From IMG/VR virus record IMGVR_UViG_3300034069_001183: a stretch of DNA of 64,000 nucleotides; one strand, 5' to 3'. Below are positions 1 through 63,311 of this stretch, piece by piece (position 1 is the stretch's first letter; every line of letters begins with the position of its first letter). The DNA comes from an uncultured virus (IMG/VR IMGVR_UViG_3300034069_001183) (Duplodnaviria > Heunggongvirae > Uroviricota > Caudoviricetes). The notes beneath the pieces were generated by a model. The model saw only the letters and a program-made list of their open reading frames with translations, did not search any database and was not told the origin of the DNA. The position numbers and the translations under genes were made by a program.

Positions 1-103
1 CATTCTCTGTCCACCTTGATCTACACTTGATGATATTTTAATCATAACTTTATATATAATTTATTTTTAATTTTCACTACATATATAAGATTTCTAAGCC
101 AGC

Positions 104-700
104 CTAATTACAGCTTTTACTATTTAAGTGCTGCAAGAGGTCAGTATTAAAAACAAGCGGTGCATAATTCTTGATCGGTTCTATTCCACGTATCATCTTA
201 GTCAGGTCATGAAACTTTGTCTTCTGTATCTGTGGTTTCTCAAAATTTCTCATCCTAAATACACTAATACCATGTGTCTTATAAAGGTATTCATCTCTAA
301 TTGCATCAGTGTCACTAGTACCCTGCTCATCATGATACTCACTATCTAGCTCTACCGCAAGTCTAAGCTCTGGAAAATAATAATCCATCAAGTAGTACAT
401 CCTTTTCTGATTTGGTAGACGGTGTGAATTCTGTATAACCACTGGAAACTCTCTAAATACAGTAAGAGGCTCCCAATAACCAACATTAATAAGTGCATCG
501 AATATCTTTGCTTGCATCGATCTCTTCCTAAGCTGCTTATTCCTAGTAAACCTCTTGCATGATGAAGGACTAGGGTACACAATGTTCTTAAAATTACAAA
601 GTCTACCACTCTCTGATAGACAGTAGACCGGAAATGATTGGCCTACTATATCTGGAAACATAAAAGTCTCACGATAATCTATTTCTTTCTTCTTTGCCAT
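104..700 (-). CDS. DUF559/Vsr-like endonuclease
   Basis: Motifs REFPV, YLMDYYFPELRLAVELDSEYH, DAIRDEYL and GISVFR are typical of DUF559 nucleases. Confidence 0.7.
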   Translation of the reverse strand: MAKKKEIDYRETFMFPDIVGQSFPVYCLSESGRLCNFKNIVYPSPSSCKRFTRNKQLRKRSMQAKIFDALINVGYWEPLTVFREFPVVIQNSHRLPNQKRMYYLMDYYFPELRLAVELDSEYHDEQGTSDTDAIRDEYLYKTHGISVFRMRNFEKPQIQKTKFHDLTKMIRGIEPIKNYAPLVFNTDLLQHLNSKSCN

Positions 701-704
701 AAAA

Positions 705-805
705 AATAAAAAAGTCGGAGAGCCATTATAATCACTACAACGGACTCCCCCTGGATATTAACAATTTAAATTTATAAAATTATGAAAAAAGTGAAAATCA
801 TTTCT
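705..805 (-). ncRNA. Candidate small RNA or leader: anti-TIR segment, hairpin and U-tract
   Basis: Promoter-like motif at 807-830 (minus strand GGTCCTGATTACTTAGATAATTG); hairpin 717-750 with G-U pairs on the minus strand; U-tract; reverse complement of ATATTAACAATTTAAA...ATTATGAAAAAAG. Confidence 0.45.
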
Positions 806-1364
806 TCCAATTATCTAAGTAATCAGGACCCTCTATTTCTTGTAGGAGGTCATGAAGCTTACCTAACTGTATAAGACAATCAAGGCAAACTACTATATCA
901 GTACCATCACCACCAAGAGATAAATGTTCCTTCCTGACTACTTCATCCTTTCCTAGCTCACAGCACTTCTCTTGCCACTTACCATATTGATAAACAGGCT
1001 TCCCACAAATGCCGCAAGACTCTACCTCATTACCATCAATAGGGAAAATACTATTATCCTTCTTGACAAAACTATGAAGTAGGTGACGAATATATTTATT
1101 ATACTGTCTACATCTATAAGCGTTTAACAGCATAATAATCTCATTATCTACAGGTTCAAGCTTTCCTGTAATATTACCACCCTTATTATTCCTATATGTC
1201 TGAAACTTACTAACTAACTCCATATCTCCTAGGTTAGTTGGGTGTAAGTAGACATAGATAATATTTTTCTGAGTAGGAGTTAGATCTGTTCTCTGCTTTA
1301 ACACTTCTAATAACTCACTACTGCTTAACTTACTATACTCGTCTATTAGTTTTTTAATCTCCAT
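798..1364 (-). CDS. Hypothetical protein with CxxC...CxxC zinc-binding motifs
   Basis: CGIC and CLDC motifs; likely start MEIKK. Confidence 0.6.
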   Translation of the reverse strand: MEIKKLIDEYSKLSSSELLEVLKQRTDLTPTQKNIIYVYLHPTNLGDMELVSKFQTYRNNKGGNITGKLEPVDNEIIMLLNAYRCRQYNKYIRHLLHSFVKKDNSIFPIDGNEVESCGICGKPVYQYGKWQEKCCELGKDEVVRKEHLSLGGDGTDIVVCLDCLIQLGKLHDLLQEIEGPDYLDNWKK

Positions 1365-1423
1365 AATAATTAATAGTTTGTAAAACAAAGCTGGCTAAAT
1401 AACATAACCAGCTTAGATTTAGT

Positions 1424-1540
1424 TTACTGATAATACAATTCTGGCAGTATATCATCATACTCTGCCTTGGCCTTCTCAGACCTCACTTCAATTACATGAT
1501 CTGCTTTGAAAAATACAGTATCCTTTTCTTTGTTTACCAT
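1424..1540 (-). CDS. Small hypothetical protein (38 aa)
   Basis: Translated by hand (MVNKEKDTVFFKADHV...); promoter motif at 1565-1588 and hairpin downstream. Confidence 0.5.
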   Translation of the reverse strand: MVNKEKDTVFFKADHVIEVRSEKAKAEYDDILPELYYQ

Positions 1541-1651
1541 AATACTATTATTTAAAATTATTATTACACTTATAAGGAATCTACCTGCTTTCATGGGCGA
1601 AAAAATATTAGTTGGCTCAGATTTTACCTACCTAAACCAACTAATAATATT

Positions 1652-1780
1652 CTACTTAAACTTATCGGGGCTGAACTCTTCCATCAGCTTCTCCCAACTT
1701 TCAATATCATTCCTCTTACCACTATTGTTGTTGTCGTTGTGATGAATTTCTCTCACTTCCTTAATTTCTCTAAACTTCAT
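1652..1780 (-). CDS. Small hypothetical protein (42 aa)
   Basis: MKFREIKEVREIHH...; A-rich start region, promoter motif at 1851-1872, hairpin at 1600-1650. Confidence 0.5.
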   Translation of the reverse strand: MKFREIKEVREIHHNDNNNSGKRNDIESWEKLMEEFSPDKFK

Positions 1781-1850
1781 AATCGTATAATTTTAATTGT
1801 TTAAAAATAAATTATCCCAAGAATTTGATTTTCTTGAGATAACTTTCATT

Positions 1851-1872
1851 ACATATATAAGGATTCTAGGGC
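1851..1872 (-). promoter_or_regulatory. Phage promoter motif (representative copy)
   Basis: GCCCTAGAATCCTTATATATGT; about 30 related copies lie upstream of transcription units. Confidence 0.7.
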
Positions 1873-1875
1873 ATC

Positions 1876-2193
1876 TTAGTCGACTAAAATCATCTCCCAA
1901 GGATTGTCTCGAAATAATTTAACCTCTAAGACTGCAAAAAATCCGCTAGGTGGGTCTGGTAGGTGAGAACTAAGTACATCCCACCCTGCAAAACTCCTAT
2001 AAAGATCTCTCCCAGACGGTTTTCCAGGCTTTACATAACTACCTCTTGTGAAATAACCCTTGTTTCTCTTAATTTCCTCTAAAATCGGATACATTACTTC
2101 CATATCCGCATCACTCACTTTTGATATTGATACACAATTTTCACCATCTTCTCCGGCTACTTGAATAATCATTGTATACTCATGATACGCCAT
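1876..2193 (-). CDS. Hypothetical protein
   Basis: ORF with promoter motif at 2221-2240. Confidence 0.65.
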   Translation of the reverse strand: MAYHEYTMIIQVAGEDGENCVSISKVSDADMEVMYPILEEIKRNKGYFTRGSYVKPGKPSGRDLYRSFAGWDVLSSHLPDPPSGFFAVLEVKLFRDNPWEMILVD

Positions 2194-2238
2194 AATTTTA
2201 TAATATTTATTTGTTTATATCTTCTACTTATAAGGATT

Positions 2239-3501
2239 TTACTTGATTTTCTCTAATATCTCAGTTACTCTCTTGATAAGTTCATCCTCAGACATCCCCA
2301 AGAGTTCAGGGTGAGTGAATACAGTTGTCCTATCATCAAAATAATAACAGCCCAGTAATTCAGCTGCATCCGTCTCCCCTTTCTTAATAGGAGTATAGTT
2401 GAGATTTACAGACATTTTTACTTCAAACTCTAGGATACCCAAGAACTTATCAAGATTCTCCTTTTTTAGTAGGTCTGGATATAATGCCATAAATACATCA
2501 ATCCCTGTCTTATTATATAAGTCGCTAGCAATTGACCCAAAGAAACCGGACGGGCTAAAATCACTAGGAATGTCAATTACTGTATCTGTTTCAATAAGTC
2601 TAAGTTTTGTTTTCCTATCATTCCTACCACAAAAGAAACGATCACATGTCTGGCTCTTCTCCACCATGTCTGATATAAACTCAAGTAAGGTAGGTTTTGT
2701 GGGAGAATCTAAGAGAGGTACACAAGATTCATAATCAACATCAATGAACAGGTCTACATCATTCTCAAGTTTGATTCTGGGAAGTTTAGATAAGCTCCCC
2801 TCTACTCTATATAGACCAGCAACACTAGATAGGCAAGAATAACTATTACGCACAACCTTACTTATTTTTCCAAGATATATAATAGCATTCGTATTATTCT
2901 TGTACAGGTATAACTTGCCAGGTACTAGTTTAGATGTTGTACTACCCTCTCTATATGCTGACAACCTAACACTATTCTCAATCTTATCTCTATTACTAAA
3001 ACCAACCCTGTGAAATCCTGTAGTAGCAATAAAATAATTACCCGATAAAGGTCTAATATAAAACTCACCAGGAATTGTTAGGCCTGTCATACCTCCACTA
3101 GCTACAATAATTCCCATCAATTCACTAGCAAACATAAACAAACAGACTGACCTACCACCTGTTTTTTCTAATAATTCTGGACTTGATACACTAACTAACA
3201 CTCTGGCAGTATTATAACCTCTTTCATCTGTTGGGTAGTAATTAGTAACCTCATCACAGTCTACTAAGGATAATGTAAACCCGCCATTTCTTACACGCAC
3301 TACTTTATAGTTTGGGTCATGTAGCTTAGCTATATGATCATACCTTAATCTAACTGACCTACTAGCAAGACCCTTAATAGCAGCACCAAAACAATAACCC
3401 TTTCTAATTAATGCCCCTATCAGTTTCTCGTTATAGAGACCATAGCTAGGCTGAATTGGTTTCACAGTTAGGTAAAAGTCTAATAAATTCGGTAATTCCA
3501 T
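2239..3501 (-). CDS. Hypothetical protein; middle region resembles 50016..51647
   Basis: 420-aa ORF; LVPGKLY...IYLGKI is like WKPGYRY...YYLGEV. Confidence 0.7.
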   Translation of the reverse strand: MELPNLLDFYLTVKPIQPSYGLYNEKLIGALIRKGYCFGAAIKGLASRSVRLRYDHIAKLHDPNYKVVRVRNGGFTLSLVDCDEVTNYYPTDERGYNTARVLVSVSSPELLEKTGGRSVCLFMFASELMGIIVASGGMTGLTIPGEFYIRPLSGNYFIATTGFHRVGFSNRDKIENSVRLSAYREGSTTSKLVPGKLYLYKNNTNAIIYLGKISKVVRNSYSCLSSVAGLYRVEGSLSKLPRIKLENDVDLFIDVDYESCVPLLDSPTKPTLLEFISDMVEKSQTCDRFFCGRNDRKTKLRLIETDTVIDIPSDFSPSGFFGSIASDLYNKTGIDVFMALYPDLLKKENLDKFLGILEFEVKMSVNLNYTPIKKGETDAAELLGCYYFDDRTTVFTHPELLGMSEDELIKRVTEILEKIK

Positions 3502-3672
3502 CTTATTTCTATTTTATTATACATCACATATAAGGTATCTGCGCCAGATTAACCTACACGCGAAAAACCATAACATTTCTATATTCCACTTTCCTATCTA
3601 ATATATCCTGCGTGTGAGTATAAGTGGCGCAGGGAAGAAAAAAAAATAAAGATAAGAACTAAGTCCCTATCT

Positions 3673-4170
3673 CTAACGCTGGCTCATGTTTCTCTCCAGC
3701 ATCTCCTTAAATTTTATCTCTAGCCCATACTTCGACAAAAAACCATACATCTCTTTCTCATTCTTTGGCAAACGACTCATTGCTTGTATGTTTGTCATGT
3801 ATACTGTAATAGCCTTCTTGTTGAATTCACTAAGAAAATCCCCAATACTGAGAATCTTCCTCGTCTTCTTACTATCACCTATGGAAACGCTCATCACACC
3901 ACGCCTAATAATCCTTCTTGCAATTCCTACTAAGCCTGCCGTAATTGACCTACCTGAGATAACAAGATCCCCTAGGTAGTTGTCGGTATCGTCGTCCACT
4001 CTCCTTTCGTCTACTATATCAACTTTGGCCCTCTTTTTCCTTCTTTCATCAGGGACTAATACCCTCTTACTATTATCTTTCTCCTTAACAGACCTCCTGC
4101 CAATATAGATCCCTAACAGTAACAATCCCATTGATACTGATACGGACGTCAACATACCTCGCTTCTCCAT
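3673..4170 (-). CDS. Membrane-anchored hypothetical protein
   Basis: N-terminal hydrophobic helix. Confidence 0.65.
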   Translation of the reverse strand: MEKRGMLTSVSVSMGLLLLGIYIGRRSVKEKDNSKRVLVPDERRKKRAKVDIVDERRVDDDTDNYLGDLVISGRSITAGLVGIARRIIRRGVMSVSIGDSKKTRKILSIGDFLSEFNKKAITVYMTNIQAMSRLPKNEKEMYGFLSKYGLEIKFKEMLERNMSQR

Positions 4171-4254
4171 AATTCCTGGGCTCTACTAATATTCTGAACT
4201 ATCATAACTAATAAATCCTCGTCATTATAATTCATCATGTAAATAAACTGTTAA

Positions 4255-4528
4255 ATAATGTGTCTAAGGTTTTATGACATTCAATAATAAATCTCATGCC
4301 ACCGTACTCCGCTAATAACCTATGAGATAAGTTAATAGCATCGCTCAATCATTAGTTTCACAACTTTAGTGCTAGTTATCCCTCATACCACGTAAAGGTT
4401 ATTGAGATTTAATGAGGGTAAAACAAAAACCACATACTAAAATTGCCTAATATAGTTGACAGTATTGCTCACGTGAAATCTAATCACTAACACCCACTGC
4501 CAACTACTTAAGCGTTAGTATATGATTC
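4255..4528 (-). ncRNA. Structured leader or ncRNA
   Basis: Follows promoter at 4529-4551; stems CATATACTAA/TTAGTATGTG, AGTTGGCAGT/ACTGTCAACT, CCCTCAT/ATGAGGG and ATCTCAT/ATGAGAT; no long ORF. Confidence 0.5.
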
Positions 4529-4551
4529 TACACTAATAAGGGATTTAGGGC
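4529..4551 (-). promoter_or_regulatory. Phage promoter motif
   Basis: GCCCTAAATCCCTTATTAGTGTA. Confidence 0.7.
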
Positions 4552-4682
4552 GTTTCAAGAGGGGGCAGGATAATACAGAGACCGCTTTTGTGACATTCTT
4601 GGGCAAGCTAGGCTCCGCACTCAATTCGTAGCCTCCGTTACACTCGGATTACATCCTCCCTCCACTACGACTACTCCTTGCT

Positions 4683-4830
4683 TCCCCGCCTTCCCGTTGC
4701 CACAATATGAACCCTCCCTCATTACCATTCGGGAGATCATATTGAACCCGGGGAAGGTATTCACTCATTCGTAGCCTCGCCGGCAGAGCACGGCTCAGGA
4801 CTCATATGAGGGTAAACTTGAAAATACCCC
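4683..4830. repeat. Conserved structured element, copy A (upstream of helicase-like gene)
   Basis: Shares identical 31-, 25-, 20- and 22-nt blocks with 60824-60968, with compensatory changes in the stems. Confidence 0.85.
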
Positions 4831-5140
4831 GATAAAGGGCGCATCGCAATTTGGAGATTTAATGGGCGGAGCGCTAGCGGAGGCCATAAATCGATGTCGA
4901 TGGATATATTATCGGGAATACTTCAAGTGTGGTATTTTTACCGAATATATATTATATATGGTAATTGATAGGAAAGTAATAAACAAAATGACATTTTTAC
5001 AATGTATAACAACTAGAAGACTTACTATTGAGATATAGACCCGATGCAAGAGTGACCGAAGGGAGTCTCTTGTGTGCGGGGCTTAGCTTGGGGTGAATAG
5101 CCCAAGTTAGAAGAGAATATTAATTAAAAAATAGAAAACT

Positions 5141-27420: not shown

Positions 27421-27651
27421 TTATTTGTTGTTACTGTTTCTTCTCAACTCCTTAAGCTCTCTCTTACTCTTTCCAAGAGACTTATTTGTTAGGTCTGCAC
27501 CAACTGCTGCAAGTGCACCTACTACTAATACTAGGAATCCTGCCTTTACTGCAAAAGATCCCATCTCGCCTAATGTGTCGCTTACTACTACACATCCTCT
27601 TCCGAACTTCTGCTTACGTTCGATTCTCTTTACTAATTTCTCACTCTTCAT
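27421..27651 (-). CDS. Small membrane protein
   Basis: TM helix; promoter motif at 27690-27711. Confidence 0.6.
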   Translation of the reverse strand: MKSEKLVKRIERKQKFGRGCVVVSDTLGEMGSFAVKAGFLVLVVGALAAVGADLTNKSLGKSKRELKELRRNSNNK

Positions 27652-27790
27652 ATAATTAATTTTAATTGTTAATAATTCATGTTTATTTTCTAATTATAAG
27701 GTTTTTAGGGGAATCTAGTTGAGGTGGATAAAAAAAAGAGTGCGACAGTATTTCTGCCACACTCAATTCAATTAATAACTATCTGGAGAA

Positions 27791-29355: not shown

Positions 29356-30492
29356 CTACTCCTCCTCGTGTGCTCCGTTTTCCATCAACCACTCTTCGAT
29401 CAGCGTCTCAGTTACTTCATTCTGTTGACTAGCCTTCTGAATACTCTCCCAGATAGCTTCGAACTGCTTATCTGTGTATTCCATCTTAGACTTGTCACGA
29501 TCTCTGAGAATCTGATCAACTATTTTCTGGATAGTCTCAGCATCTTCTGGATCTGCTGCAGCTTTTACTTGTACTGTGAGCTGTCGGATGTTATACTCCT
29601 TCTTAACATCTTCATCATCGCCCATTACAAACTCCTTAACAGCTGAGCCAGTCTTTTTGAGCACCTCCTTAGCACCACCAACCAAGTCTTCTCTCGTTGA
29701 CTTAGGATTCTTCACAGTTTCTACAAAGTCCTTAATACTTTCTTTAGGACTCTTAGACATTTCACGAGCATCTTTGACTGCTTCGGTTAGCTCTTCTTTT
29801 ACTACATCTGCCATTATTGCAGCTTTCTTCAAAAATTTTCTAATTTTATTCATACTAATTGATTTATATTCACTAATAAGGGTTTTAGCGGTTCTCTTAG
29901 TTTCTTGTACCTCGCAGTAGTTGTCAGAATAAAACCTATTACAAAGTATCCTATCAAGGTTCATGGCGATTAATTCTGCTAGCTTATCATGACCGAAACA
30001 GAATTCCTCAGGGTGTCTTAGTATGTACTTAAGATCAAATAGTACATACTTCTCTACTTCCCCCGATTCACCTCCTCTGGTAATGGTAGACAATTCATTT
30101 CTACTACTCATTATAAACCTAAGCATTTCATGTTCTAAGATTGTCATGTACCTCAGAGTGATGTTTCCATTGTTAGTATTAGGTCCATCATCTAGTCCGC
30201 AAAAATGTAGGTCCCCAGGATTTACAACTAGTCCTGTCTCCTCTAGTAATTCCCTGACTGCACCTCCTCTAATATACTGGTCTGCAAAATCATAGTACCC
30301 ACAAGGCATACAATACAGGCCTACATTATCAGGGCAACCAGGACCTCTCTTTTCAAACAAGAATAATAAGTTTTCAGTTGGATCCATGCCCTTATCATTC
30401 CAACAACACACTGAACATACTGTGGCAATGCTAGGAGAAAACCACCTAACCTTACCATCCTCCTTACAAGTAAACGGTTTATTTGTTTCCAT
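29356..30492 (-). CDS. Nudix hydrolase fused in-frame to a second helical protein (internal start 29853)
   Basis: Nudix box GGAVRELLEETGL; internal promoter motif at 29870-29891. Confidence 0.75.
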   Translation of the reverse strand: METNKPFTCKEDGKVRWFSPSIATVCSVCCWNDKGMDPTENLLFLFEKRGPGCPDNVGLYCMPCGYYDFADQYIRGGAVRELLEETGLVVNPGDLHFCGLDDGPNTNNGNITLRYMTILEHEMLRFIMSSRNELSTITRGGESGEVEKYVLFDLKYILRHPEEFCFGHDKLAELIAMNLDRILCNRFYSDNYCEVQETKRTAKTLISEYKSISMNKIRKFLKKAAIMADVVKEELTEAVKDAREMSKSPKESIKDFVETVKNPKSTREDLVGGAKEVLKKTGSAVKEFVMGDDEDVKKEYNIRQLTVQVKAAADPEDAETIQKIVDQILRDRDKSKMEYTDKQFEAIWESIQKASQQNEVTETLIEEWLMENGAHEEE

Positions 30493-31090
30493 AATTTTTT
30501 GAAATATACTCTAATTTCTCTTTAAACACTAGGGGACTTATTCCTGCCATTATTACCACGGCGGGAACATGTCTCTTACTCATGTCCTTCACAAATAACC
30601 AGGGAACAGCACCTAGGTTAATATCTTCTACTGACCAAGGACAATTACCTCCGCCGTAATCCTTTGGCAGATTATATTCTAGTGGGTATGTGCTGAAATA
30701 ACCCTCATCATCCTCACTACCAACAAATGCAAAAGGTACCTCTATTATATCACCTTCAGAATTTTCATATGGTCCCTCTGCATTACAATCATAGGGTGCA
30801 TCATTCCAGTCATCACCCCATTGTTCTAGGAGGTCAAGTCTTGTAAAATATGCAGAGTGTGTTCTACTGGTTTGATCATATTCTGGATTAGGTAGGTCTT
30901 TGTATACTACCTTAGAATTATACTGCATCACTCCATACTCCTTTACGAAATCCTTGTACTCCTGAGATTCAAAGTACTGTTTTGTTGATTCAGTAGGTCC
31001 GTATATGGTAGGGCTAATTTCATCAATATAACAGAGCTTGTAATTATTCAGGCTCTCATCAATCTCACTTAATAATACTGTCTTACTCAT
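30479..31090 (-). CDS. Hypothetical phage protein
   Basis: QWGDDWNDAPYDCNA motif. Confidence 0.65.
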   Translation of the reverse strand: MSKTVLLSEIDESLNNYKLCYIDEISPTIYGPTESTKQYFESQEYKDFVKEYGVMQYNSKVVYKDLPNPEYDQTSRTHSAYFTRLDLLEQWGDDWNDAPYDCNAEGPYENSEGDIIEVPFAFVGSEDDEGYFSTYPLEYNLPKDYGGGNCPWSVEDINLGAVPWLFVKDMSKRHVPAVVIMAGISPLVFKEKLEYISKNYGNK

Positions 31091-31917
31091 GGGAATACTT
31101 GCTTAAATGGTTTAATATTACCGCCCATTATATTTCGCTTACTGTTTTTATCCTCCAGTATTGCAAAACATATCTGACTAAACATATTCTCAAACTCAGA
31201 TTCACTTAGGACTTCTCTGAATGATTCTGCTGTCTGTAGTGGATTATTACCATATGCACCACAACCAAAGGCACCTAGTACTAATTTTCTATGTCCCTCC
31301 AGTAATGCTATCCTAAGTATTGTTCGTATCTTACCTTTCAATACTGTCAAGTCCTTCTCCATCATTTCACCATTACTATTTAAGTCTGGTCTCTTAATGG
31401 CTGGTACTGTGATAATTGAGCAGGTGAAAGGGTCCGATAAGTAGCTGTAAGACGTAGCGGCTCTAAATACTGTTACGTTCCTACTATAAATCCCACCAAA
31501 CTCAGATATTGGATATGCTTGCCTTACTAGTTTATCACCAAACGTACCTAGCCGCTTTTGATCACAGCTATATAAGGACCGAACTAAACTGCTCCTCCTA
31601 CACAGCTCTTCTTCCTGTGCTTTAGATCCTCTCTCAACACCACCACCAGGACAATAGAAAGATGCCATATTAAGTACAGCACAGTCAGGACCTAGTTTTT
31701 TAGCAGCGAGTAGTGTATCTGTGTTCTCTACCCAAATCTTAGTAGGGCCAGAGGGAGCATAGTTTTTATTTTTCACACTCAATGTCCTCTTATAGTATCT
31801 AGTAGTTGGTAAGGTTAATTCATGCCACTTACCGTCAGAATCTAGATATCCTTCATTACTAATTACATCACAAGTGTCTTTAAAAATCTCTACTAATTCA
31901 CTTTTAGATTTTGTCAT
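31087..31917 (-). CDS. TIGR02452 family / bacterial PARG-like macrodomain protein
   Basis: LNMAS..PGGG...AQEEELCRRS and LVLGAFGCGAYGN. Confidence 0.85.
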   Translation of the reverse strand: MTKSKSELVEIFKDTCDVISNEGYLDSDGKWHELTLPTTRYYKRTLSVKNKNYAPSGPTKIWVENTDTLLAAKKLGPDCAVLNMASFYCPGGGVERGSKAQEEELCRRSSLVRSLYSCDQKRLGTFGDKLVRQAYPISEFGGIYSRNVTVFRAATSYSYLSDPFTCSIITVPAIKRPDLNSNGEMMEKDLTVLKGKIRTILRIALLEGHRKLVLGAFGCGAYGNNPLQTAESFREVLSESEFENMFSQICFAILEDKNSKRNIMGGNIKPFKQVFP

Positions 31918-33529: not shown

Positions 33530-33679
33530 TTATTCGGTTAAATACTCTACTAATTCTCTCTTGACTTTGTGGAGCTCATGCATGATGAGCTTACCAACTA
33601 TTATCGATCCAATTACTAGAACCATCATCGTTGTATAGATGACTGTCCAAAATAAGATCCAACTTTGATCCACTGTCAT
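33530..33679 (-). CDS. Small membrane protein (49 aa)
   Basis: MTVDQSWILFWTVIY...; promoter motif at 33713-33734. Confidence 0.55.
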   Translation of the reverse strand: MTVDQSWILFWTVIYTTMMVLVIGSIIVGKLIMHELHKVKRELVEYLTE

Positions 33680-33746
33680 AATTGTATGTATTTGATTGTT
33701 AATATCTTTATTACACTAATAAGGGATTTAGGACATCATAGGGAGC

Positions 33747-36622: not shown

Positions 36623-37414
36623 ATGAGTAATGCAATTTTTAGATTCTTAGGTTATTATACTGATTACGAGTATAAGATCCAAGGAATGAAGGACTATAAG
36701 AAAGCTGGTAATACTGCTTGTTTTGCTGAGGCCCTTCAAAGAATGAGATCTAATTTTGAAACGAGTGAAAAATTTAGCGGGTCTTACAAAATCAAGATCT
36801 ATAGAACACAGTATCAAATTAGTAAGAGTAAAAGCAATTTCTGCCTACTTAGTAAGAAAGAGATCAGAGATTATATAAATATTCTCAAGAAAGTAGTTAA
36901 ATTCAGGTGGAGATTCTTGAAAGACAATAAAGACTATTTTACTGTCAAAGCGGATATCCAGGAGGGTTATCATACAACACATAGGGCAGTTCTATTTTGG
37001 ATTAGAAACTTATACGAGTTCCCATTTAATGTACTTGTGAAAGATGCTGAGTTATTCAGAAAAGATCACAGGTATAGTTATATTGGTGCTCTCAACATAC
37101 ACAGACTTGTTTATATATCTAATTGTCTTAACGAGGATTGTCATTCAATGTTTAAGTATCGCTATAATAGTCTTGGGACATTGGATGAATACCAGAGAGC
37201 GTTTAACAATGACAGAGAACTCTACGTGTCTGATACAATCCGTGATATTGCTAACAGTATTGAAATTGAGGGACCAATCGGAACTGCTTGTTCTGATCTA
37301 GATAAACTTAAGTCTCTGGAATTTTGGACAGAACTAGAAGATGACTGTCCACAAAGAAAAGATAGGTTTGAAGTGTACAGTAAGAATTTAAAACATTATA
37401 CTAGAAAAAGATGA
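36623..37414 (+). CDS. Hypothetical protein (amidoligase operon)
   Basis: ORF overlapping the next gene. Confidence 0.65.
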   Translation: MSNAIFRFLGYYTDYEYKIQGMKDYKKAGNTACFAEALQRMRSNFETSEKFSGSYKIKIYRTQYQISKSKSNFCLLSKKEIRDYINILKKVVKFRWRFLKDNKDYFTVKADIQEGYHTTHRAVLFWIRNLYEFPFNVLVKDAELFRKDHRYSYIGALNIHRLVYISNCLNEDCHSMFKYRYNSLGTLDEYQRAFNNDRELYVSDTIRDIANSIEIEGPIGTACSDLDKLKSLEFWTELEDDCPQRKDRFEVYSKNLKHYTRKR

Positions 37415-38049
37415 AAGTATTTGTAGTAGGATCAGCAGTTTATTATGCTAAGTTTCTGAAAAATGTAGAACTAGTAGAGAAACAAGAAGATGCTGATGTG
37501 GTATTGTTTACAGGTGGTGAAGATGTTGATCCAAGCACCTATGGACACCGCCGACATCCTCGCACATATTCAAATATACTGAGAGATGAGGAAGAAATCG
37601 AAGTGTTCAAGAAGATTCGTAATGATCAGCTTGCATTTGGTATCTGTAGAGGCTCTCAGTTCTTATGTGCAGTTAACGGCGGAAAATTGGTGCAAGACTG
37701 TAACAATCATGCAATAGGTGGCACACATGAGATAACTGATGGAAAGTCTGTGTACGATATAACATCAACCCATCACCAAATGCAGTATCCATATAACCTG
37801 GGAGACTCTGAGTATGATGTTCTCTACAAGTCACTAGAAAATAGGTCAAACTATTATGAGGGAGACGATGAAATAGATAGTGACAAGATAGAGAAACTTG
37901 GAGAGCCTGAGATTGTACTGTATAAGGTAGAGGGAAATCCAGTATCTCTTGCAGTACAGGGACATCCAGAAATGATTCCTACATCACCAGTTGCAGAGAT
38001 GATTAGTGAGTTGGTTGAAAAATATAGTAAGGAGGTTAAGAAAGTATGA
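37411..38049 (+). CDS. Class I glutamine amidotransferase (peptidase C26-like)
   Basis: FTGGEDVDP, GICRG, HHQ and QGHPE. Confidence 0.85.
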   Translation: MKVFVVGSAVYYAKFLKNVELVEKQEDADVVLFTGGEDVDPSTYGHRRHPRTYSNILRDEEEIEVFKKIRNDQLAFGICRGSQFLCAVNGGKLVQDCNNHAIGGTHEITDGKSVYDITSTHHQMQYPYNLGDSEYDVLYKSLENRSNYYEGDDEIDSDKIEKLGEPEIVLYKVEGNPVSLAVQGHPEMIPTSPVAEMISELVEKYSKEVKKV

Positions 38050-38837
38050 GACTGAGAAACATTACAGTAGGTGCAGATCCAGAGCTTTTTATAGTAAATG
38101 AAAAGACTGGAAAAGTAGTATCATCAATCGGTATTATCCCAGGTGAAAAGGGAAATGCATGGAAGTCTGATGATATGCCAGAGGGATTTGGTATTGAGGT
38201 AGATAATATCCTAGGCGAATTCAACATTCCACCTTGTAAGACTAAGGAGGAATTCATTAACAATATCGAATATATGAAAGATTATATTGATAGGTTTGTT
38301 AAGGAGAAGAACCCAGACTTAGGAATTCAGTGTATTGCGTCAAGAGAAGTAGATGAAGATCAACTACAATCAGATGAAGCTAAGCTCTTTGGTTGTAGTC
38401 CTGATTTCAATGCTTATACTGAAATGGAGAATGAGAAGCCTGATGGTGAATCAACAAATCTTAGGTCAGCTGGTTTTCATATTCACATTGGGTATGATAA
38501 CAATGACATAGATACTTCAGTCCAGCTTGTTAAGTACTTGGATCTCTACTTAGGGGTTCCAGCAGTAATAGATGATCCCGACAAGAAGAGAAGATCACTT
38601 TATGGTAAGGCAGGTTCATTCAGACTTACACATTACGGAGTTGAGTATAGGTCATTATCTAGCGCTATGATGAAGGATAAAAAGACCCTCAAGAAAGTTT
38701 GGTATAGAATTGTATCAGCCATAGATGCATTCAATTATGAGAAAGAACTCCCATCATCTAGTGCAGTAAGAAAAGCGATTGATAACAGTTCAGTTGAGAT
38801 GGCTAAGAAATTAGTTGAACAATTTGACCTAGTATAA
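38046..38837 (+). CDS. phiEco32-like COOH-NH2 ligase type 2
   Basis: GADPELF, DN..EFN, FGCSPD, RSAGFHIH, RRSLYGKAG and YGVEYR. Confidence 0.85.
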   Translation: MRLRNITVGADPELFIVNEKTGKVVSSIGIIPGEKGNAWKSDDMPEGFGIEVDNILGEFNIPPCKTKEEFINNIEYMKDYIDRFVKEKNPDLGIQCIASREVDEDQLQSDEAKLFGCSPDFNAYTEMENEKPDGESTNLRSAGFHIHIGYDNNDIDTSVQLVKYLDLYLGVPAVIDDPDKKRRSLYGKAGSFRLTHYGVEYRSLSSAMMKDKKTLKKVWYRIVSAIDAFNYEKELPSSSAVRKAIDNSSVEMAKKLVEQFDLV

Positions 38838-38841
38838 AGTT

Positions 38842-40224
38842 ATGTGCGGAATATTTGGAATAATAAATAAAAAGAAGAGCGATTTTGATAAGACAACATT
38901 TAATGTCTTAGGTATTAATAATGACACTAGAGGAGGTGATTCTTGTGGAGTTTTTATTGATGGTCGCTATGAGTATGGTGTAGACGATAAGAGTTACTAT
39001 GAGGAATTTTTTGAGACAAGTAAGATCTTAAAGACTACCACTAAGTGTACTATTGCAATCGGTCATGATAGGAAGGCAAGTGTTGGTAAGATTGATAAAA
39101 CTACTGCACAGCCAATAGTCCTCAAAAAAAAAAAAGGCGAGGTAGAATTTGTAGTGATTCATAATGGAACTATCTACAACTATCTTGACCTGGCTAAGAA
39201 GTATATCCCAGGTGTTAAGATCGAAGGCCTAACAGATTCACAAGTAATGGCAAGAATCTTTTACTACAAGGGATATGATGTACTAGAAGAGTATAATGGA
39301 GGTGCTGTATTTGTAGTCGTTGATTATAGACAGCCAAAACCTAAGGTACTATTCTTCAAGGGCGCATCTAAGAAGTACAATACAGGCAAAGAGATGGATG
39401 AAAGACCATTCTACTTCTCAATTGATCCAAAGCAAGGGTTAGTATTCAGCTCCATCAGTACATACCTTAAAGCACTTAGGCCAGAAGGAGAGGTATATAC
39501 TATCAAAGCTAACCAACTGATAGATTACAACAATGAGACCTGTAAGATGACAATTATTAAGAACGTTGACAGGTCTAAACAGCAACAGACAAAGGAATAC
39601 ACAAACAAGTATAGTTTTGCAAGTGAGATTCCTTCTAAGTGGAGTGGCTACAGTAACAGTAAATATAGTAGCGGTGGTTGTTGTGGATATACAGAATCAT
39701 CTTATGTGAAGGTTGACTATCTCAGTAATACCTATTCAAATAAAAAGGGTAAACTACACGGAGAGTATCATATGACAAGATATGGAAAATTCGTGAGCCC
39801 TGATAGTAAAGATTCAGAAGTATTTAATGTCTGGTTCTTTAACGGTATTGCGCTGAAAGGAAAGGAGGAGTTTAAGTTTCTTGAGTATTTTAACAAGAAG
39901 ACAAAACTGGATATCAACAAGTTCACAGAGAGATATCAAAACTTAGTGAGGTCAATCAGTGTGGATGGCCTGTACTGGAAGGAGATAGATGGTGAAGAGT
40001 ATCTAGTAAGGGCAATTAGTACAGATGATTTCCAGAAGTTTACAGGTGGCTTTCAGATGTTAGGTCAATCTAGTAATAAACAGTACTTAGTTGGAAGGTA
40101 TACTGGTGACTGTTACTCTGGATTTGATAGACCTTTCGTATTTATAGATGAGAAAGATAAGTTCAATATCAAAAGCTTCTATAAGATATGCAAGTTATTG
40201 ATGAAGTCAGCGGTAATAAAATAG
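38842..40224 (+). CDS. Class II (Ntn) glutamine amidotransferase
   Basis: N-terminal MCGIFG, RGGDS, GHDRKAS, HNG and TDS. Confidence 0.85.
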   Translation: MCGIFGIINKKKSDFDKTTFNVLGINNDTRGGDSCGVFIDGRYEYGVDDKSYYEEFFETSKILKTTTKCTIAIGHDRKASVGKIDKTTAQPIVLKKKKGEVEFVVIHNGTIYNYLDLAKKYIPGVKIEGLTDSQVMARIFYYKGYDVLEEYNGGAVFVVVDYRQPKPKVLFFKGASKKYNTGKEMDERPFYFSIDPKQGLVFSSISTYLKALRPEGEVYTIKANQLIDYNNETCKMTIIKNVDRSKQQQTKEYTNKYSFASEIPSKWSGYSNSKYSSGGCCGYTESSYVKVDYLSNTYSNKKGKLHGEYHMTRYGKFVSPDSKDSEVFNVWFFNGIALKGKEEFKFLEYFNKKTKLDINKFTERYQNLVRSISVDGLYWKEIDGEEYLVRAISTDDFQKFTGGFQMLGQSSNKQYLVGRYTGDCYSGFDRPFVFIDEKDKFNIKSFYKICKLLMKSAVIK

Positions 40225-41447
40225 ATGTGTTTTCAGCCATCAAGGTAATCATTGGGCTGAATAAAGAAGATGAGACTCTTATTTATGGTTATATAGATTC
40301 AAAACATTTAAACCTAACTAAGAGAGTACTAGTAGGTTCCAGAGGTGCAATTATGTATGTACTTACTACTAAATTCCCTGAAGATGAGCTATTCTTCAGT
40401 AGGTATTATGGTATGTATAGGACTAAGATAGGCCTCTCTCAAGCAGATATACAGAGAGAGTCTAAAATTCTAGGTAAAGGTAGTTTTCCGTATAGCTTTG
40501 AAAGGATGTACGAAGCAGTTGACAACTTTCAGATTTTCCAAGACAAGGATAAGCTGATTGATACTGAATTCAAACACCCCCTCGCTAAACAGATGAACTA
40601 TACATTTGGCTTAGAGTTTGAGACATGTAAGGGCTATATACCAGAGGATATTTGTTTCAGAGATGGACTTATACCGCTTAGAGATGGATCTATTAGTGGG
40701 CTTGAGTATAGTACTTTGGTTTTGCAGGGAAATTCTGGACTATCTATGCTAAAACAACAGATAGGTACCTTACAGGAATATACTAGGTTTGACAAAGACT
40801 GCTCCTTACATATTCACTTCGGCGGTTATCCATTACAGGCTGATAAACTATGGGCGCTTTATTCAGTGTGTTATAGAATTCAGGACAACCTTAAAGGATA
40901 TGTACCTAAGTTTACATTTTATAGTAGTAGGTATAAGAGTTCTGGGAAGGATTATTGCAAATTCCTACCAGACTTTGATAGCTTTAACGAACTATATGAA
41001 ACTTTTGTAGGGAGAAGATTCTTTGGTGACTTATCTCAACCACATCCAAATGATCCAAAGAGATGTGCTAAGTGGAGAATCCCGCACAGATATTATTGGG
41101 TTAACTTTATAAATGCAATGTGCTATAAGGTTAACAAGACAATCGAATTTAGATTACTTAGACCAACATTTAATTATGCAAAGATAACATTATGGATGTA
41201 TGTGTTTAATGCAATCTTAAAATATGCCGACAAACATTCAGATACTTGTCACTTAGGCCTAGATAAATCAAGCCTAATGATTTCAGATATACTGGATGAT
41301 GTCTACCCAAAGAGACTTGCTAGTAAACTTAAGACTAGATGGAATCGTCTTAGCAAGGCAGTAATGGATCAAGAGAAAAAGGGTGATTACATTGGCAGTA
41401 AGGTTGACATAGATAACAATTACATACCAGTATTTGAAATAATCTAA
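40188..41447 (+). CDS. Putative amidoligase (COOH-NH2 ligase type 1)
   Basis: FGLEFE, DGSI..LEY, CSLHIHFG, RY.WVN and TIEFR. Confidence 0.8.
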   Translation: MQVIDEVSGNKIDVFSAIKVIIGLNKEDETLIYGYIDSKHLNLTKRVLVGSRGAIMYVLTTKFPEDELFFSRYYGMYRTKIGLSQADIQRESKILGKGSFPYSFERMYEAVDNFQIFQDKDKLIDTEFKHPLAKQMNYTFGLEFETCKGYIPEDICFRDGLIPLRDGSISGLEYSTLVLQGNSGLSMLKQQIGTLQEYTRFDKDCSLHIHFGGYPLQADKLWALYSVCYRIQDNLKGYVPKFTFYSSRYKSSGKDYCKFLPDFDSFNELYETFVGRRFFGDLSQPHPNDPKRCAKWRIPHRYYWVNFINAMCYKVNKTIEFRLLRPTFNYAKITLWMYVFNAILKYADKHSDTCHLGLDKSSLMISDILDDVYPKRLASKLKTRWNRLSKAVMDQEKKGDYIGSKVDIDNNYIPVFEII

Positions 41448-43300: not shown

Positions 43301-43336
43301 CTTTATGACATTATTAACATTTTAAATTAAACGATT

Positions 43337-43528
43337 ATGAACAGTTTTGTAAAAGAAGTTAAGAACGGAGCAGTTTGCTCTGCAAAAGTAGGTGCATGCG
43401 TGTTTGTATTTTACGGCGCATTGTCAGTAGTAAATTTGATCCTCGGCGCAGGTAGCAAAGAGGAAGTAGAAAAGACACCAGAGACTAATCCTACTGGTGA
43501 ACAACCTTTAGAGGGTGCTGCTAAATAG
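43337..43528 (+). CDS. Small membrane protein
   Basis: TM helix; TTAACA start region. Confidence 0.6.
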   Translation: MNSFVKEVKNGAVCSAKVGACVFVFYGALSVVNLILGAGSKEEVEKTPETNPTGEQPLEGAAK

Positions 43529-43566
43529 CACTCTCAGTACATATTAACAATTTAAAAACTTATATT

Positions 43567-43680
43567 ATGGATAAAGATCTTAGAGGAGAAAGAATTACTA
43601 TCCTTACTGCAATAGTAGTATTGATAGTAGGTTTCATCTGGAACGTTAGCAATAAGGTTCTAGATAAGGTCGATAAGTAG
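43567..43680 (+). CDS. Small membrane protein (37 aa)
   Basis: MDKDLRGERITILTAIVVLIVGFIW... Confidence 0.6.
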   Translation: MDKDLRGERITILTAIVVLIVGFIWNVSNKVLDKVDK

Positions 43681-43741
43681 AAAACCAATAAACGGGGTCT
43701 AGCAGTAGGCCCTAGACATATTAACAATTTAAACAAAGATT

Positions 43742-43891
43742 ATGAAGAAAGAATTATCAGATATTTCTACTATTGGTATAGTAGTTTTATCAACTACAGC
43801 TCTGAAGTTATATGACTTATACAGAGCAAAGAGAGTTAGAAAATTGTATTCTAAACTAGAAAAATTGGAGGAAGAAAGCAATGAGAAATAA
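43742..43891 (+). CDS. Small membrane protein (49 aa)
   Basis: MKKELSDISTIGIVVLSTTALKLY... Confidence 0.6.
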   Translation: MKKELSDISTIGIVVLSTTALKLYDLYRAKRVRKLYSKLEKLEEESNEK

Positions 43892-44033: not shown

Positions 44034-44073
44034 TAAGCACTTAGACATATTAACAATAAAAAAAATAAAGATT

Positions 44074-44259
44074 ATGAAAACTATAATGAGTGGATTATCA
44101 ATACTTTCATTTGTATTGTATTTTTTGTGTGTAGTCGTTCTGCACTTTAAACTTGGAAACGACACAGTTAACTTGGTATGTGATATATACCTGGTAGTTA
44201 TGGTAGTAGTATATGGATACTACGGAACAAAGATCTGGTGGAAGACGCTGGATAAATAG
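44074..44259 (+). CDS. Small two-TM membrane protein (61 aa)
   Basis: Start MKTIMSG after the ACATATTAACAAT motif. Confidence 0.6.
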   Translation: MKTIMSGLSILSFVLYFLCVVVLHFKLGNDTVNLVCDIYLVVMVVVYGYYGTKIWWKTLDK

Positions 44260-49768: not shown

Positions 49769-50002
49769 TTAATTCTTTTTATTGTTAGGTGGAAGTCTAG
49801 TAATAATTCTACCCTTTGTTAAGTCATAAGGGCTCATTTCTACTACTACACCATCACCTGCCATGATTCTGATAAAATTCTTCCTAATCTTACCAGAAAT
49901 AGTGCAAAGTATCTCATGTCCGGAATCTAGGGTAACTCTAAACATTGAATTACCCAACTCCTGAGACACCTTGCCATCTACTTTAATATTATCTTGTTTC
50001 AT
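49769..50002 (-). CDS. infA: Translation initiation factor IF-1
   Basis: [51 protein letters not shown]. Confidence 0.95.
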
Positions 50003-56911: not shown

Positions 56912-56964
56912 AATAATACTTTGTTTTAATTACACTGTTAAGGAATACAAGACGGGGGAGTGGA

Positions 56965-57686: not shown

Positions 57687-57835
57687 CATATATAAGAAAT
57701 CGAGGCCTTTTCAAACTGCATTAATTTTCGAGGCCTTCATACTTCCTACACTAATAAGAAATCAAGGGGATCTCAAACGCCCTTATTTCTTAAGGACTAC
57801 GGCAAAAAAAATAAGCTAAGGTATTACCCCCTAGC

Positions 57836-60968: not shown

Positions 60969-61244
60969 TGAAGTACATCTGTGGTTAGGATACAGGAAAA
61001 TACCGAGCGCCAGCGAAGGGATTTTGTATGAACTCTACAGATGAATATAGGGGTGACTATTTCCAAAATCGGCATATATTCTTTACGTACTCTGTCAAAA
61101 AATTCAATGAATTTGGTAAAATTGTAGTAGTGGTGTTCTAAAAGACTTATCTATGTAATAGATAGGGGCATTAAGCGGGCCGCTGCCAAAAAAGGCCGCT
61201 TAAGCCCGGAAACATATTCATTAACATTTTAAAAATAATTTATT

Positions 61245-63311
61245 ATGACAGAAGAAGGAGCAATCGTAGTAGAAGTACCTAAGGGATATAGGTACATCTC
61301 AGAAATCCCAGACTTTAAAATTAATGATTTCCCACACATCCTGAACAAACAAATACCGGGATGTGGTTTCACAGAGTACTGTATTGACCCTGCTAAAAAC
61401 AGTGAAGATATAATACTATGTAGTCCTAGAAAGATCTTACTAAAAAATAAGTATGATCAACACGTAGGAGATGTATTCTTAGTTGAAAATAAGTATGAAC
61501 AAGAAACAAGGACTGATAAAGACCTTACAAAGATAGAGAAAGAGAGGGGTGGAAGTATCTTTACAGAGGAAAAAGTGCCGACAAAAGAAGAAATTGAACA
61601 AGCTGAAAAAGAAAAGGTAGGTTTCTTCAATGGTCTTAGGGAGGACTTGAAGAAATATATCATAGGCTGTAGATTTCTCAAGAAGCCAGTTAAAATCTTA
61701 GTTACCTACGACTCATTCAGGATTGTCAAGGATATTATTAAGAGCATTGATGAACTTGATGATTTTAGGGTGATCGTAGATGAGTTTCAAAGTATCTTCA
61801 CAGACAGTAGATTCAAACCCGACACAGAAATGGTATTCGTTAAGAACCTACAAGAAGTGAAGAAGCTCTGTTATGTAAGTGCAACTCCGATGATGAAAAA
61901 GTATTTAAGTCAGTTGGAGGAATTTAAAGATCTTCCCTACTACGAACTAGATTGGGAAGCGCTTGACCCTGATAGGGTAAGGAAGCCGAAACTTACTCTA
62001 AAAGGTATGAAGGCTATGTATACAGTAGTTGGTCCTATTATTAAAAAATATCTAGAAGGTGATTTTAGCTATAGATTTGTAAAGGGTGCTGGTGGCGGTG
62101 AGGTAGTAAAGGTAGAATCAAAGGAGGTTGTATTCTATGTTAACTCCGTCGCCAATATTACTAACTTAATAAAAAGAGCAAAATTAGGACCTGATCAAGT
62201 AAATATCTTAGTAGCCAATACACAGGATAACGCAAATAAGATAAAGAAAAGGTTAGGTACTAAATATAAGATTGGTACAGTTCCATTAAGGGATGAACCA
62301 AGGAAGATGTTTACTTTCTGTACCAGGACTGTTTACTTGGGGGCTGACTTTTATTCTGATAATGCACAGACGGTAGTACTTAGTGATGCCAACCTAGAAA
62401 CCCTTGCAGTTGATATTTCTCTAGATCTTCCACAAATTTTAGGTAGGCAAAGGCTTAGAGAAAATCCTTGGAAAGACGAAGCAACTGTTTATTTCAGGCA
62501 CCTACTGGATAAAAATAAGATAAACGAAAAAAGTTTTGACGAGAGAATAGACTGGAAGCTTAAGAAGACTGGTAACCTGCTTACTATATTTGACGAGACA
62601 AGAAATGTATTGAAGGGAGATTTATCAGAGGCATACCAAAAAATAGCAAGAACCTTCAATTATAAGGACGATTATGTAGCAGTGAATGTAGAAGAAGATC
62701 CAGAAACGGGAGGTCCAAAACTTATACCTGTTCTAAATAACTTAGTACTGGTATCAGAGAGACGTGCTTTTGATATGCAACAGACAGAGTATGCAGATCG
62801 ATTTACAGTCTTTAATGAGGTCGGTAAGGTATCTACTATTGAAGCGATGAGTGATAAAGTATCTGAGTTCTTCGAAGAGTATGACAAGATAGATACTAGG
62901 CAGAAGAAGTTAAAATTCTTGTGCGAAAGTTATAATAATTTTGACAAGAGTGAGTGGAGATATATACTTGACAACTTAACAGAACTTCACTTTCAAGAAT
63001 ATATAGAAGTACTGGGTCTTGATGAATGTAAGGCGCAGGCATATAATACTTTCCTACTTAATAAAAAACTTGATATCTTGAGTTTTGATAAGAATTCATT
63101 AAAAGAAGATATCTATAATGAATTTAAAGTAGGCCAGTCTTATCCAAACCCATACATTAAACAAAAACTAGGAGAAATATATAACAGGAAAGAATACAGA
63201 GCTACACCAAAGACTACTGATCTGATTGAGTACTTTGATATAAAACAGAAGAAAATAAAAGATGAAACTGATAAGTGGGTTCATGGTGTTGTAATCATAA
63301 GCAAGAAATAA
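61245..63311 (+). CDS. SF2 helicase-like protein (degenerate Walker A); paralog 2
   Basis: Same motifs as 5141..7183, colinear over the full length. Confidence 0.75.
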   Translation: MTEEGAIVVEVPKGYRYISEIPDFKINDFPHILNKQIPGCGFTEYCIDPAKNSEDIILCSPRKILLKNKYDQHVGDVFLVENKYEQETRTDKDLTKIEKERGGSIFTEEKVPTKEEIEQAEKEKVGFFNGLREDLKKYIIGCRFLKKPVKILVTYDSFRIVKDIIKSIDELDDFRVIVDEFQSIFTDSRFKPDTEMVFVKNLQEVKKLCYVSATPMMKKYLSQLEEFKDLPYYELDWEALDPDRVRKPKLTLKGMKAMYTVVGPIIKKYLEGDFSYRFVKGAGGGEVVKVESKEVVFYVNSVANITNLIKRAKLGPDQVNILVANTQDNANKIKKRLGTKYKIGTVPLRDEPRKMFTFCTRTVYLGADFYSDNAQTVVLSDANLETLAVDISLDLPQILGRQRLRENPWKDEATVYFRHLLDKNKINEKSFDERIDWKLKKTGNLLTIFDETRNVLKGDLSEAYQKIARTFNYKDDYVAVNVEEDPETGGPKLIPVLNNLVLVSERRAFDMQQTEYADRFTVFNEVGKVSTIEAMSDKVSEFFEEYDKIDTRQKKLKFLCESYNNFDKSEWRYILDNLTELHFQEYIEVLGLDECKAQAYNTFLLNKKLDILSFDKNSLKEDIYNEFKVGQSYPNPYIKQKLGEIYNRKEYRATPKTTDLIEYFDIKQKKIKDETDKWVHGVVIISKK

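Follow-up and report, generated by a model that had tools for sequence, protein, structure and literature searches.

An inverted gene-start cassette, rather than a dedicated small RNA, as the favored reading of an intergenic spacer in an uncultured phage

In this study we examined a 97-nt spacer (positions 701-797) that separates two co-directional minus-strand genes, 798..1364 and 104..700, in a 64,000-nt stretch of DNA from an uncultured virus of the Caudoviricetes (IMG/VR record IMGVR_UViG_3300034069_001183), the whole of which is hereafter called the window. A first-pass annotation had proposed that this spacer gives rise to a trans-acting small RNA (sRNA) complementary to the start regions of phage or host genes, or else that it is the leader or attenuator of the DUF559 gene (104..700). 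Such a start-blocking sRNA would, if true, represent a rare kind of RNA-based control in a Bacteroidota phage, but the evidence points to something more ordinary. The reading that we favor, with a probability of roughly 0.55, is that the sequence at position 755 is an inverted member of a family of gene-start cassettes, located in the 3' untranslated region (3'UTR) of gene 798..1364 beside the terminator of that gene, which also gates the DUF559 gene.

According to this reading, positions 752-784 would be one reversed copy of a multi-copy translation initiation region (TIR) of the Bacteroidota type, which does not use a Shine-Dalgarno (SD) sequence and consists of an enhancer (TATTAACAATTTAAA), 8-11 nt and ATT-ATG. 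On the transcribed minus strand, this copy would be a plain part of the 798..1364 3'UTR, which would end at a strong intrinsic terminator, and the DUF559 gene would rely entirely on read-through and would start translation in a poor, U-rich initiation region. Recombination between cassettes, which visibly adds and removes small genes in this lineage, is the most likely origin of the inverted copy, and gene conversion or some function may keep it cassette-like.

The starting point of the sRNA proposal was the 16-mer ATATTAACAATTTAAA, said to lie upstream of small membrane genes. We found it exactly at 755-770, 43541-43556 and 43718-43733, in all cases on the plus strand. The match was also rightly described as extending across the start of gene 43742, since the 43718 copy continues, after 5 nt and not 8, into ATTATGAAGAAAG, to be compared with ATTATGAAAAAAG at 779-791; the single A/G difference between the two corresponds to a G-U pair in an RNA duplex. 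When up to three mismatches were allowed, the window contained 13 matches to the 16-mer against 4.04 ± 2.19 expected, a number reached in none of 100 shuffles. These 13 matches were taken without requiring an ATG, and the next ATG was sought afterwards. In eight of them a same-strand ATG lies 8-11 nt downstream and opens 30 to 688 codons, with ATT preceding the ATG in seven of the eight; the copy at 755 opens the shortest open reading frame (ORF) of them all. The cassette can be described as TATTAACAATTTAAA, followed by 8-11 nt and ATTATG, and at least seven further genes of the window are preceded by it on their coding strand (table 1), the four cassette-led genes at 43.3-44.3 kb being small and of membrane type. 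The 16-mer is the core of this recurrent gene-start cassette and not a private sRNA seed. The match at 57379 was rejected as a cassette for being a hairpin loop, and the spacing obtained from a position weight matrix scan was set aside as circular, given that its sites had been picked for a nearby ATG and that shuffles gave 1-14 hits of at least 10 bits.

The cassette is widespread beyond the window. The pattern TATTAACAATTTAAA-N6-12-ATTATG was present in at least 110 stretches of viral contigs (L008-L117) and at least 120 stretches of bacterial genomes (L118-L237). Among the matches listed, 84 of 89 unique viral copies and 116 of 120 bacterial ones have an ATG that opens 39 codons or more, and 73 of 80 bacterial rows carry Bacteroidota names, the phylum having been assigned by us from the names of the organisms; the other seven belong one each to Chlorobiota, Chlamydiales, Desulfobacteraceae, Bacilli, Fusobacteriaceae, Puniceispirillales and Clostridia. 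The ORFs behind the first 40 bacterial copies, identified by eye from their translated N-termini, include L7/L12-, S15-, DnaK-, TatA-, cold-shock-, SOD- and ATP-synthase-c-like proteins. In three L7/L12-like cases among these 40, the motif comes directly after the stop codon of the preceding gene and is therefore inside an operon. A TAnnTTTG −7 box was found upstream in 34 of the 120 bacterial copies listed, compared with 10 of 120 on the opposite strand, and its distance to the cassette motif varies from 4 to 86 nt. Because it precedes real ORFs in about 200 viral and bacterial loci, of which the bacterial ones are nearly all from Bacteroidota, the cassette is a Bacteroidota-type non-SD TIR. 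The bacterial matches and the ORFs behind them thus bear out the earlier mention of generic Bacteroidota A-rich start regions.

Such a TIR agrees with published work. The ribosome-binding site (RBS) of Bacteroidetes is described as A-rich and of the non-SD kind, with TAAAAA as its core some 7-9 nt ahead of the start (PMC6028130), and an A at −3 has been reported to act as a positive determinant (PMC6847099). Like the RBS of GeneMarkS-2 "group B" (PMC6028130) and that of Baez et al. 2019 (PMC6847099), the cassette is an AU-rich motif ending in TTTAAA(A), located 8-11 nt before the ATG and accompanied by an A at −3. It also precedes both first and internal genes of operons and is almost restricted to the genomes of Bacteroidota and to their presumed phages. 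Unlike the published core, a longer exact word recurs here (15-16 nt, including the C of TTAACA), and in the relevant literature we found neither the exact 13-mer nor the long leader string. This long leader word, which hardly varies, is a mark of well-expressed genes in Bacteroidota and their phages and is more specific than the published core. The exact 15-mer TATTAACAATTTAAA was also observed before genes of the highly expressed type (rplL, rpsO, dnaK, tatA, csp, sodA and atpE-like) across Bacteroidota. With respect to such a strongly conserved leader, it may be of some relevance that the window encodes a 77-aa homologue of initiation factor IF-1 (49772-50002, minus strand; Pfam PF01176, 4.9e-25).

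The copy at 752..784 shares the layout of seven other gene starts, with an AU-rich enhancer at 755-770, an ATG 11 nt past the motif and an A at −3. What sets it apart from a working Bacteroidota RBS is its position on the non-coding strand, without a real conserved ORF behind it.

The window has 36% G+C and a phage-like organization, with blocks of genes switching strand, and its relatives are metagenome contigs of 326-346 kb. For comparison we used ten relatives: the 47-kb viral record G001, which is 96% identical to the window over 86-1500 and was the sole close relative among the viral contigs searched, and nine metagenome loci (L238-L246). Eight of them (G001 and L238-L244) are close, and L245/L246 represent a more distant lineage, about 88-90% identical. 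A megablast search of window positions 1-5000 against a phage collection gave no match, and a search of the whole window with the covariance models of Rfam 15 gave no match at the gathering score.

As had been noted, the cassette's reverse complement on the minus strand is followed by a hairpin (750..717), 47 nt past the TGA (798-800) of gene 798..1364, and then by a U-tract, UUUUUUAUUUUUU (713..701). The minus-strand hairpin has a folding energy of −18.1 kcal/mol (z = −3.2), and only 3 of 200 shuffles fold as well; RNA of the plus strand at 701-790 reaches only −6.7 kcal/mol (z = 0.07). The hairpin is kept in 10 of 10 relatives. It is unchanged in the eight close ones, and in L245/L246 the loss of a bulged C produces a perfect 14-bp stem; the alignment contains no compensatory pairs, so that it speaks for conservation only. 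Moreover, four further genes in this minus-strand block have a 3' hairpin followed by a T-run (3675-3647, 1845-1809, 1646-1606 and 1414-1388). A simple terminator scan did not list the 717-750 hairpin, which is bulged and spans 34 nt, and the terminator assignment rests on the fold. Based on these data, the hairpin and the U-tract are the predicted intrinsic terminator of gene 798..1364. As in Rho-independent terminators, a stable, G+C-containing hairpin precedes a U-tract, and the structure is strand-specific and conserved; unlike typical ones, the stem is bulged and rich in G-U pairs, and the U-tract makes up the entire leader of the next gene. Another hairpin, proposed by alignment folding around the stop codon (~785-809), was dropped (−5.6 kcal/mol, z = −0.07, no better than shuffles).

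The terminator is separated from the start codon of the DUF559 gene by 0 nt in the window and by 12 nt in L246, due to a 12-nt insertion present in L245/L246. Because the terminator abuts the start codon, expression of this gene would have to depend on read-through; we infer that it is expressed only in this way and at a low level, which would fit a nuclease. The idea of a DUF559 leader or attenuator came closer to the mark than that of the sRNA. A dedicated attenuator, in which alternation of the spacer between terminator and anti-terminator folds would control read-through, seems highly improbable to us. It is favored by the direct contact between terminator and start codon and by the lack of both a cassette and a promoter motif in the gene, but no pairing competes with the terminator stem in single-sequence or alignment folds, no compensatory pairs and no Rfam family match were found, and L245/L246 carry their 12-nt insertion between U-tract and ATG with the region otherwise unchanged.

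The sRNA had been given a promoter of its own inside the 3' end of gene 798..1364, and this part of the proposal did not hold: no minus-strand promoter was found there in searches for sigma-70-like, Bacteroidota and phage motifs. At 785-900 the minus strand lacks any sigma-70-like site; the sole local hit of this type lies on the plus strand at 752-780 (9/12), overlapping the cassette, and hits at that level are background in the window (23 found, 20 ± 5 expected). Similarly, an exact TAnnTTTG, the −7 box of Bacteroidota, is absent from the minus strand at 701-950, and we found no −7/−33 promoter at 785-900 and, with up to three mismatches, no match to the phage promoter-like motif CCTTATTAGTAG on either strand at 701-900. 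Elsewhere in the window, the motif CCTTAT[AT]AGT has, with up to one mismatch, 25 hits, 13 of which fall in the 13.5% that is non-coding. This promoter-like motif is found at a variable distance upstream of the cassette, so the cassette is tied to the start codon and not to the start of transcription.

Several results weigh against the 755 copy being just an inverted cassette, and the first group of them concerns RNA pairing. We tested the 50-nt spacer RNA 800..751 for duplexes with the −35 to +15 region of 89 predicted genes, using 150 dinucleotide shuffles for comparison; an 80-nt query had been uninformative (best −30.1 kcal/mol, shuffles −25.1 ± 2.6 with a minimum of −34), and the test was repeated with the 50-nt spacer. 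The best duplex of the spacer RNA, with gene 43742, has −28.0 kcal/mol, a value reached by 1 of 150 shuffles (−19.3 ± 2.0), and the third-best has −24.0 kcal/mol, reached by none (−16.8 ± 1.3). Among 89 natural 3' flanks, the spacer region ranks about second to fourth in pairing. In the predicted folds the anti-motif is unpaired and is followed by the terminator, as in many base-pairing sRNAs. The complementarity is thus greater than expected from an AT-rich background, as shown by the AT-matched shuffles, and the match is real; the first-pass annotation had named the opposite outcome as one that would refute its proposal. In addition, promoter types beyond those that we can recognize may exist.

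These results invite an alternative, the earlier sRNA idea stripped of its own promoter, in which the mRNA of 798..1364, or a processed 3' fragment of it, would carry an exposed 16-nt anti-enhancer and anti-start segment and would lower the translation of cassette leaders. Its best target would be 43742; 43567, 27651, 33679 and 28389 would be others, as might host mRNAs with the same leader. Besides the pairing energies and the single-stranded anti-motif between coding region and terminator, this alternative has in its favor the conservation of the cassette cores in L245/L246, where the remaining spacer drifts, and the existence of precedents. sRNAs derived from mRNA 3' ends are known elsewhere (reviewed in PMC9438474), and in Bacteroides FopS-10 blocks translation of susC next to its start codon (PMC11697453). 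Like start-occluding sRNAs such as the prophage DicF (PMC5069750), those derived from 3' ends (PMC9438474) and FopS-10 (PMC11697453), the predicted spacer RNA combines a 3' terminator, a single-stranded anti-start stretch and a possible origin in an mRNA 3' end; unlike them, it would have as its "seed" a mirrored generic leader and not a dedicated sequence.

Nevertheless, we consider this alternative unlikely. A promoter was sought on the minus strand and none was found, the duplex is AU-rich, and co-variation with the targets is equally predicted by gene conversion among cassettes. Above all, when seven other cassette leaders were reverse-complemented, their best energies, self-pairing aside, ranged from −23.2 to −38.7 kcal/mol, to be compared with −28.0 for the candidate, so that the reverse complement of any cassette behaves in the same way and the match adds nothing beyond an inverted family repeat. 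The complementarity signal belongs to the repeat family and not to the 755 locus, and the spacer is complementary to the starts of small genes because all of them carry the same cassette. Of the discrete trans-acting sRNA, then, the accessible seed and the above-chance complementarity stood, and the promoter of its own did not. Unlikely, too, is the broader idea that the 3'UTR of 798..1364 might be a phage-made "anti-leader", an exposed mirror of the consensus Bacteroidota TIR which, released with or from the mRNA, would pair with the cassette leaders of the phage and potentially with those of host rplL and dnaK, which contain the same 15-mer, thereby timing or dampening translation in a jumbo phage that has its own IF-1. 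More generally, an inverted leader word will always resemble an antisense regulator, which makes it a trap in scans of AT-rich phage genomes.

The second group of results that speak against a simple inverted cassette comes from conservation. Between G001 and the window there are no substitutions at 597-824, although the alignment has 52 differences, gaps included, in 1416 aligned bases. By a hand count, the spacer of L245/L246 has about 12 substitutions and five indels and still keeps the cores TATTAACAATT and TAAAATTATGAAAAAAGTG intact, an argument that involves two lineages only and islands chosen after the fact. In L246, the leader of a working neighbor, gene 1876..2193, has varied more in its enhancer part. 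The cassette at 755 therefore seems to be preserved better than would be expected of a neutral relic, as far as these alignments indicate. The kept cores suggest that selection or gene conversion among cassettes may be at work; in L246 the cassette motif has changed into TATTAACAATTAAAA, which is another common working variant and the one present at 27660.

Indels of small genes between relatives were observed at other cassette copies. G001 contains about 350 bp of extra DNA (1463-1814) that includes two small ORFs, of 56 and 49 aa, and lies between two alignment blocks; the 25 nt by which these blocks overlap coincide exactly with the cassette at 43307-43331. L246, in turn, is without ~1640-1875, a segment that includes a cassette-led 42-aa gene (module 1652..1780). 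The cassettes are recombination junctions for the gain and loss of small genes, a modular shuffling similar to that of PeSL elements, and such junctions offer a ready origin for a stray inverted copy. In T4-like phages, PeSL elements are described as composite promoter and stem-loop repeats that mediate the modular shuffling of small ORFs (PMC2839356, PMC4122927). The likeness lies in short conserved regulatory repeats, often just after a hairpin, that flank small genes and sit at indel junctions. Hairpins precede three of the four folded cassette copies at 43.3-44.1 kb, without U-tracts. In contrast to PeSL, the repeat found here is a translation-initiation leader with no composite early promoter and terminator, a separate motif (CCTTATTAGT) being present at variable distance; the host phylum and the phage group are different, and the junction events were seen at other copies and not at 755. 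In this lineage of phages of about 340 kb, the leader word doubles as a recombination junction for swapping small genes. We also considered whether a 31-nt inverted repeat, 755-784 / 2223-2193 (26 of 31 positions identical by hand, 13 nt exact), delimits an invertible segment, and rejected it, as a flip would part the genes from the promoter at 2235.

A third alternative would make the plus-strand cassette active in its own right, either in an antisense transcript through DUF559 from which a short ORF of irrelevant sequence would be translated, starting at the ATG at 782, or in a plus-strand RNA acting as cis-antisense to the 3' end of 798..1364. In phage lambda, OOP RNA acts as a cis-antisense against cII. 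The motif, the spacing of 11-12 nt, the A at −3, the ATG and the Lys-Lys codons are intact in the window and in all 10 relatives, and the L246 motif has turned into the working variant, both of which are what an active cassette would predict. However, the phage-class promoter motif is absent upstream of 752 with up to three mismatches, the sigma-70-like hit is background, the adjacent hairpin folds only on the minus strand, and the ORF is unconserved in sequence, frame and length (30 vs. 13 codons). G001 has five substitutions in ORF 782..874 (825, 831, 837, 846 and 861), all of them replacements (Q15L, P17L, F19S, G22V and Y27C); worked out by hand, they fall in second codon positions of the plus-strand ORF and in third positions of the minus-strand gene. 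In the L245/L246 lineage, a 1-nt indel shifts the frame of the ORF into MKKVNIYFFQLSK*, 13 codons long in L246. Because all the G001 changes are replacements and the frame is shifted in L245/L246, there is no conserved peptide, and 782..874 is probably not a protein gene. Taken as a whole, we regard an active plus-strand cassette as very unlikely, and retain the inverted cassette in the 3'UTR of 798..1364 as the preferred reading.

Table 1. Coordinates of the spacer, its flanking genes and the cassette family in the window
Position	Strand	Feature
752..784	+	Inverted gene-start (TIR) cassette: TGGATATTAACAATTTAAA, 11-nt gap, ATTATG; directed against both flanking genes
751..797	-	3'UTR/spacer of 798..1364 with anti-cassette UUUAAAUUGUUAAUAU; predicted single-stranded (folds)
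717..750	-	Predicted terminator hairpin; strand-specific owing to G-U pairs
701..713	-	Predicted terminator U-tract UUUUUUAUUUUUU (U6AU6); runs directly into the ATG of 104..700
798..1364	-	Gene for a 188-aa Cys-rich protein, family unassigned; mRNA 3'UTR bears the reverse complement of the cassette
104..700	-	Gene for a putative DUF559 / PvuRts1I-N-like (Vsr-type) nuclease; without a cassette of its own
782..874	+	30-codon ORF that begins at the cassette ATG; overlaps the final 25 codons of 798..1364 in antisense
43541..43556	+	Exact 16-mer; leader of small gene 43567..43680 (37 aa)
43718..43733	+	Exact 16-mer; leader of small gene 43742..43891 (49 aa); best predicted duplex partner
43311..43326	+	Cassette, 2 mismatches; before 43337..43528; junction of the ~350-bp small-gene indel vs. 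G001
44047..44062	+	Cassette, 2 mismatches; before gene 44074..44259
27660..27675	-	Cassette, 2 mismatches; before gene 27421..27651
33690..33705	-	Cassette, 3 mismatches; before gene 33530..33679
61218..61233	+	Cassette, 3 mismatches; before 688-aa gene 61245..63311

As for the flanking genes, the protein of 798..1364 is 91-98% identical in the nine metagenome loci; searches in Pfam and PHROG returned no family for it, and the atlas gave no lead of at least 0.9. The assignment of 104..700 follows from Pfam matches to PF04480 (9.2e-7) and PF21598 (1.2e-5) and from PDB matches to PvuRts1I (0.009) and AbaSI (0.017), and no paralogue of this gene was found in the window or in G001.

Some minor observations were made along the way. 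Around one of the other terminators of the minus-strand block, 1845-1809, several unrelated contigs from two sequencing runs match only a stretch of about 40-50 nt (1824-1874) and then diverge, which suggests that another short repeat may be present there. The extended promoter-like motif CCTTAT[AT]AGT[GA]T[AG] recurs upstream of genes, without mismatch at 4541(−), 33724(−), 42656(+), 47499(−) and 59280(−), and with one mismatch at 1577(−), 2235(−), 25041(−), 35304(+), 43248(+) and 54686(−); its conservation extends to L246. For three genes (those ending at 25028−, 35317+ and 42577−) the ATG follows the motif after 1-3 nt, suggesting that the corresponding mRNAs may be leaderless. The host-type TAnnTTTG box precedes 3 of the 89 window genes, showing no enrichment. 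A region of about 900 nt without a convincing ORF (56950-57835) contains several hairpins and a promoter-like motif at 57759 (−) and has no Rfam match; at 57137-57216 (−) ARAGORN made its sole call from the tRNA search, an odd "tRNA-???" with a 4-nt anticodon. Finally, the window includes, at 37411-41447 (plus strand), 31090-31917 (minus strand) and 29359-30492 (minus strand), a cluster of GATase, phiEco32-like COOH-NH2 ligase and amidoligase genes, and, elsewhere, a microbial PARG gene and a NUDIX gene.

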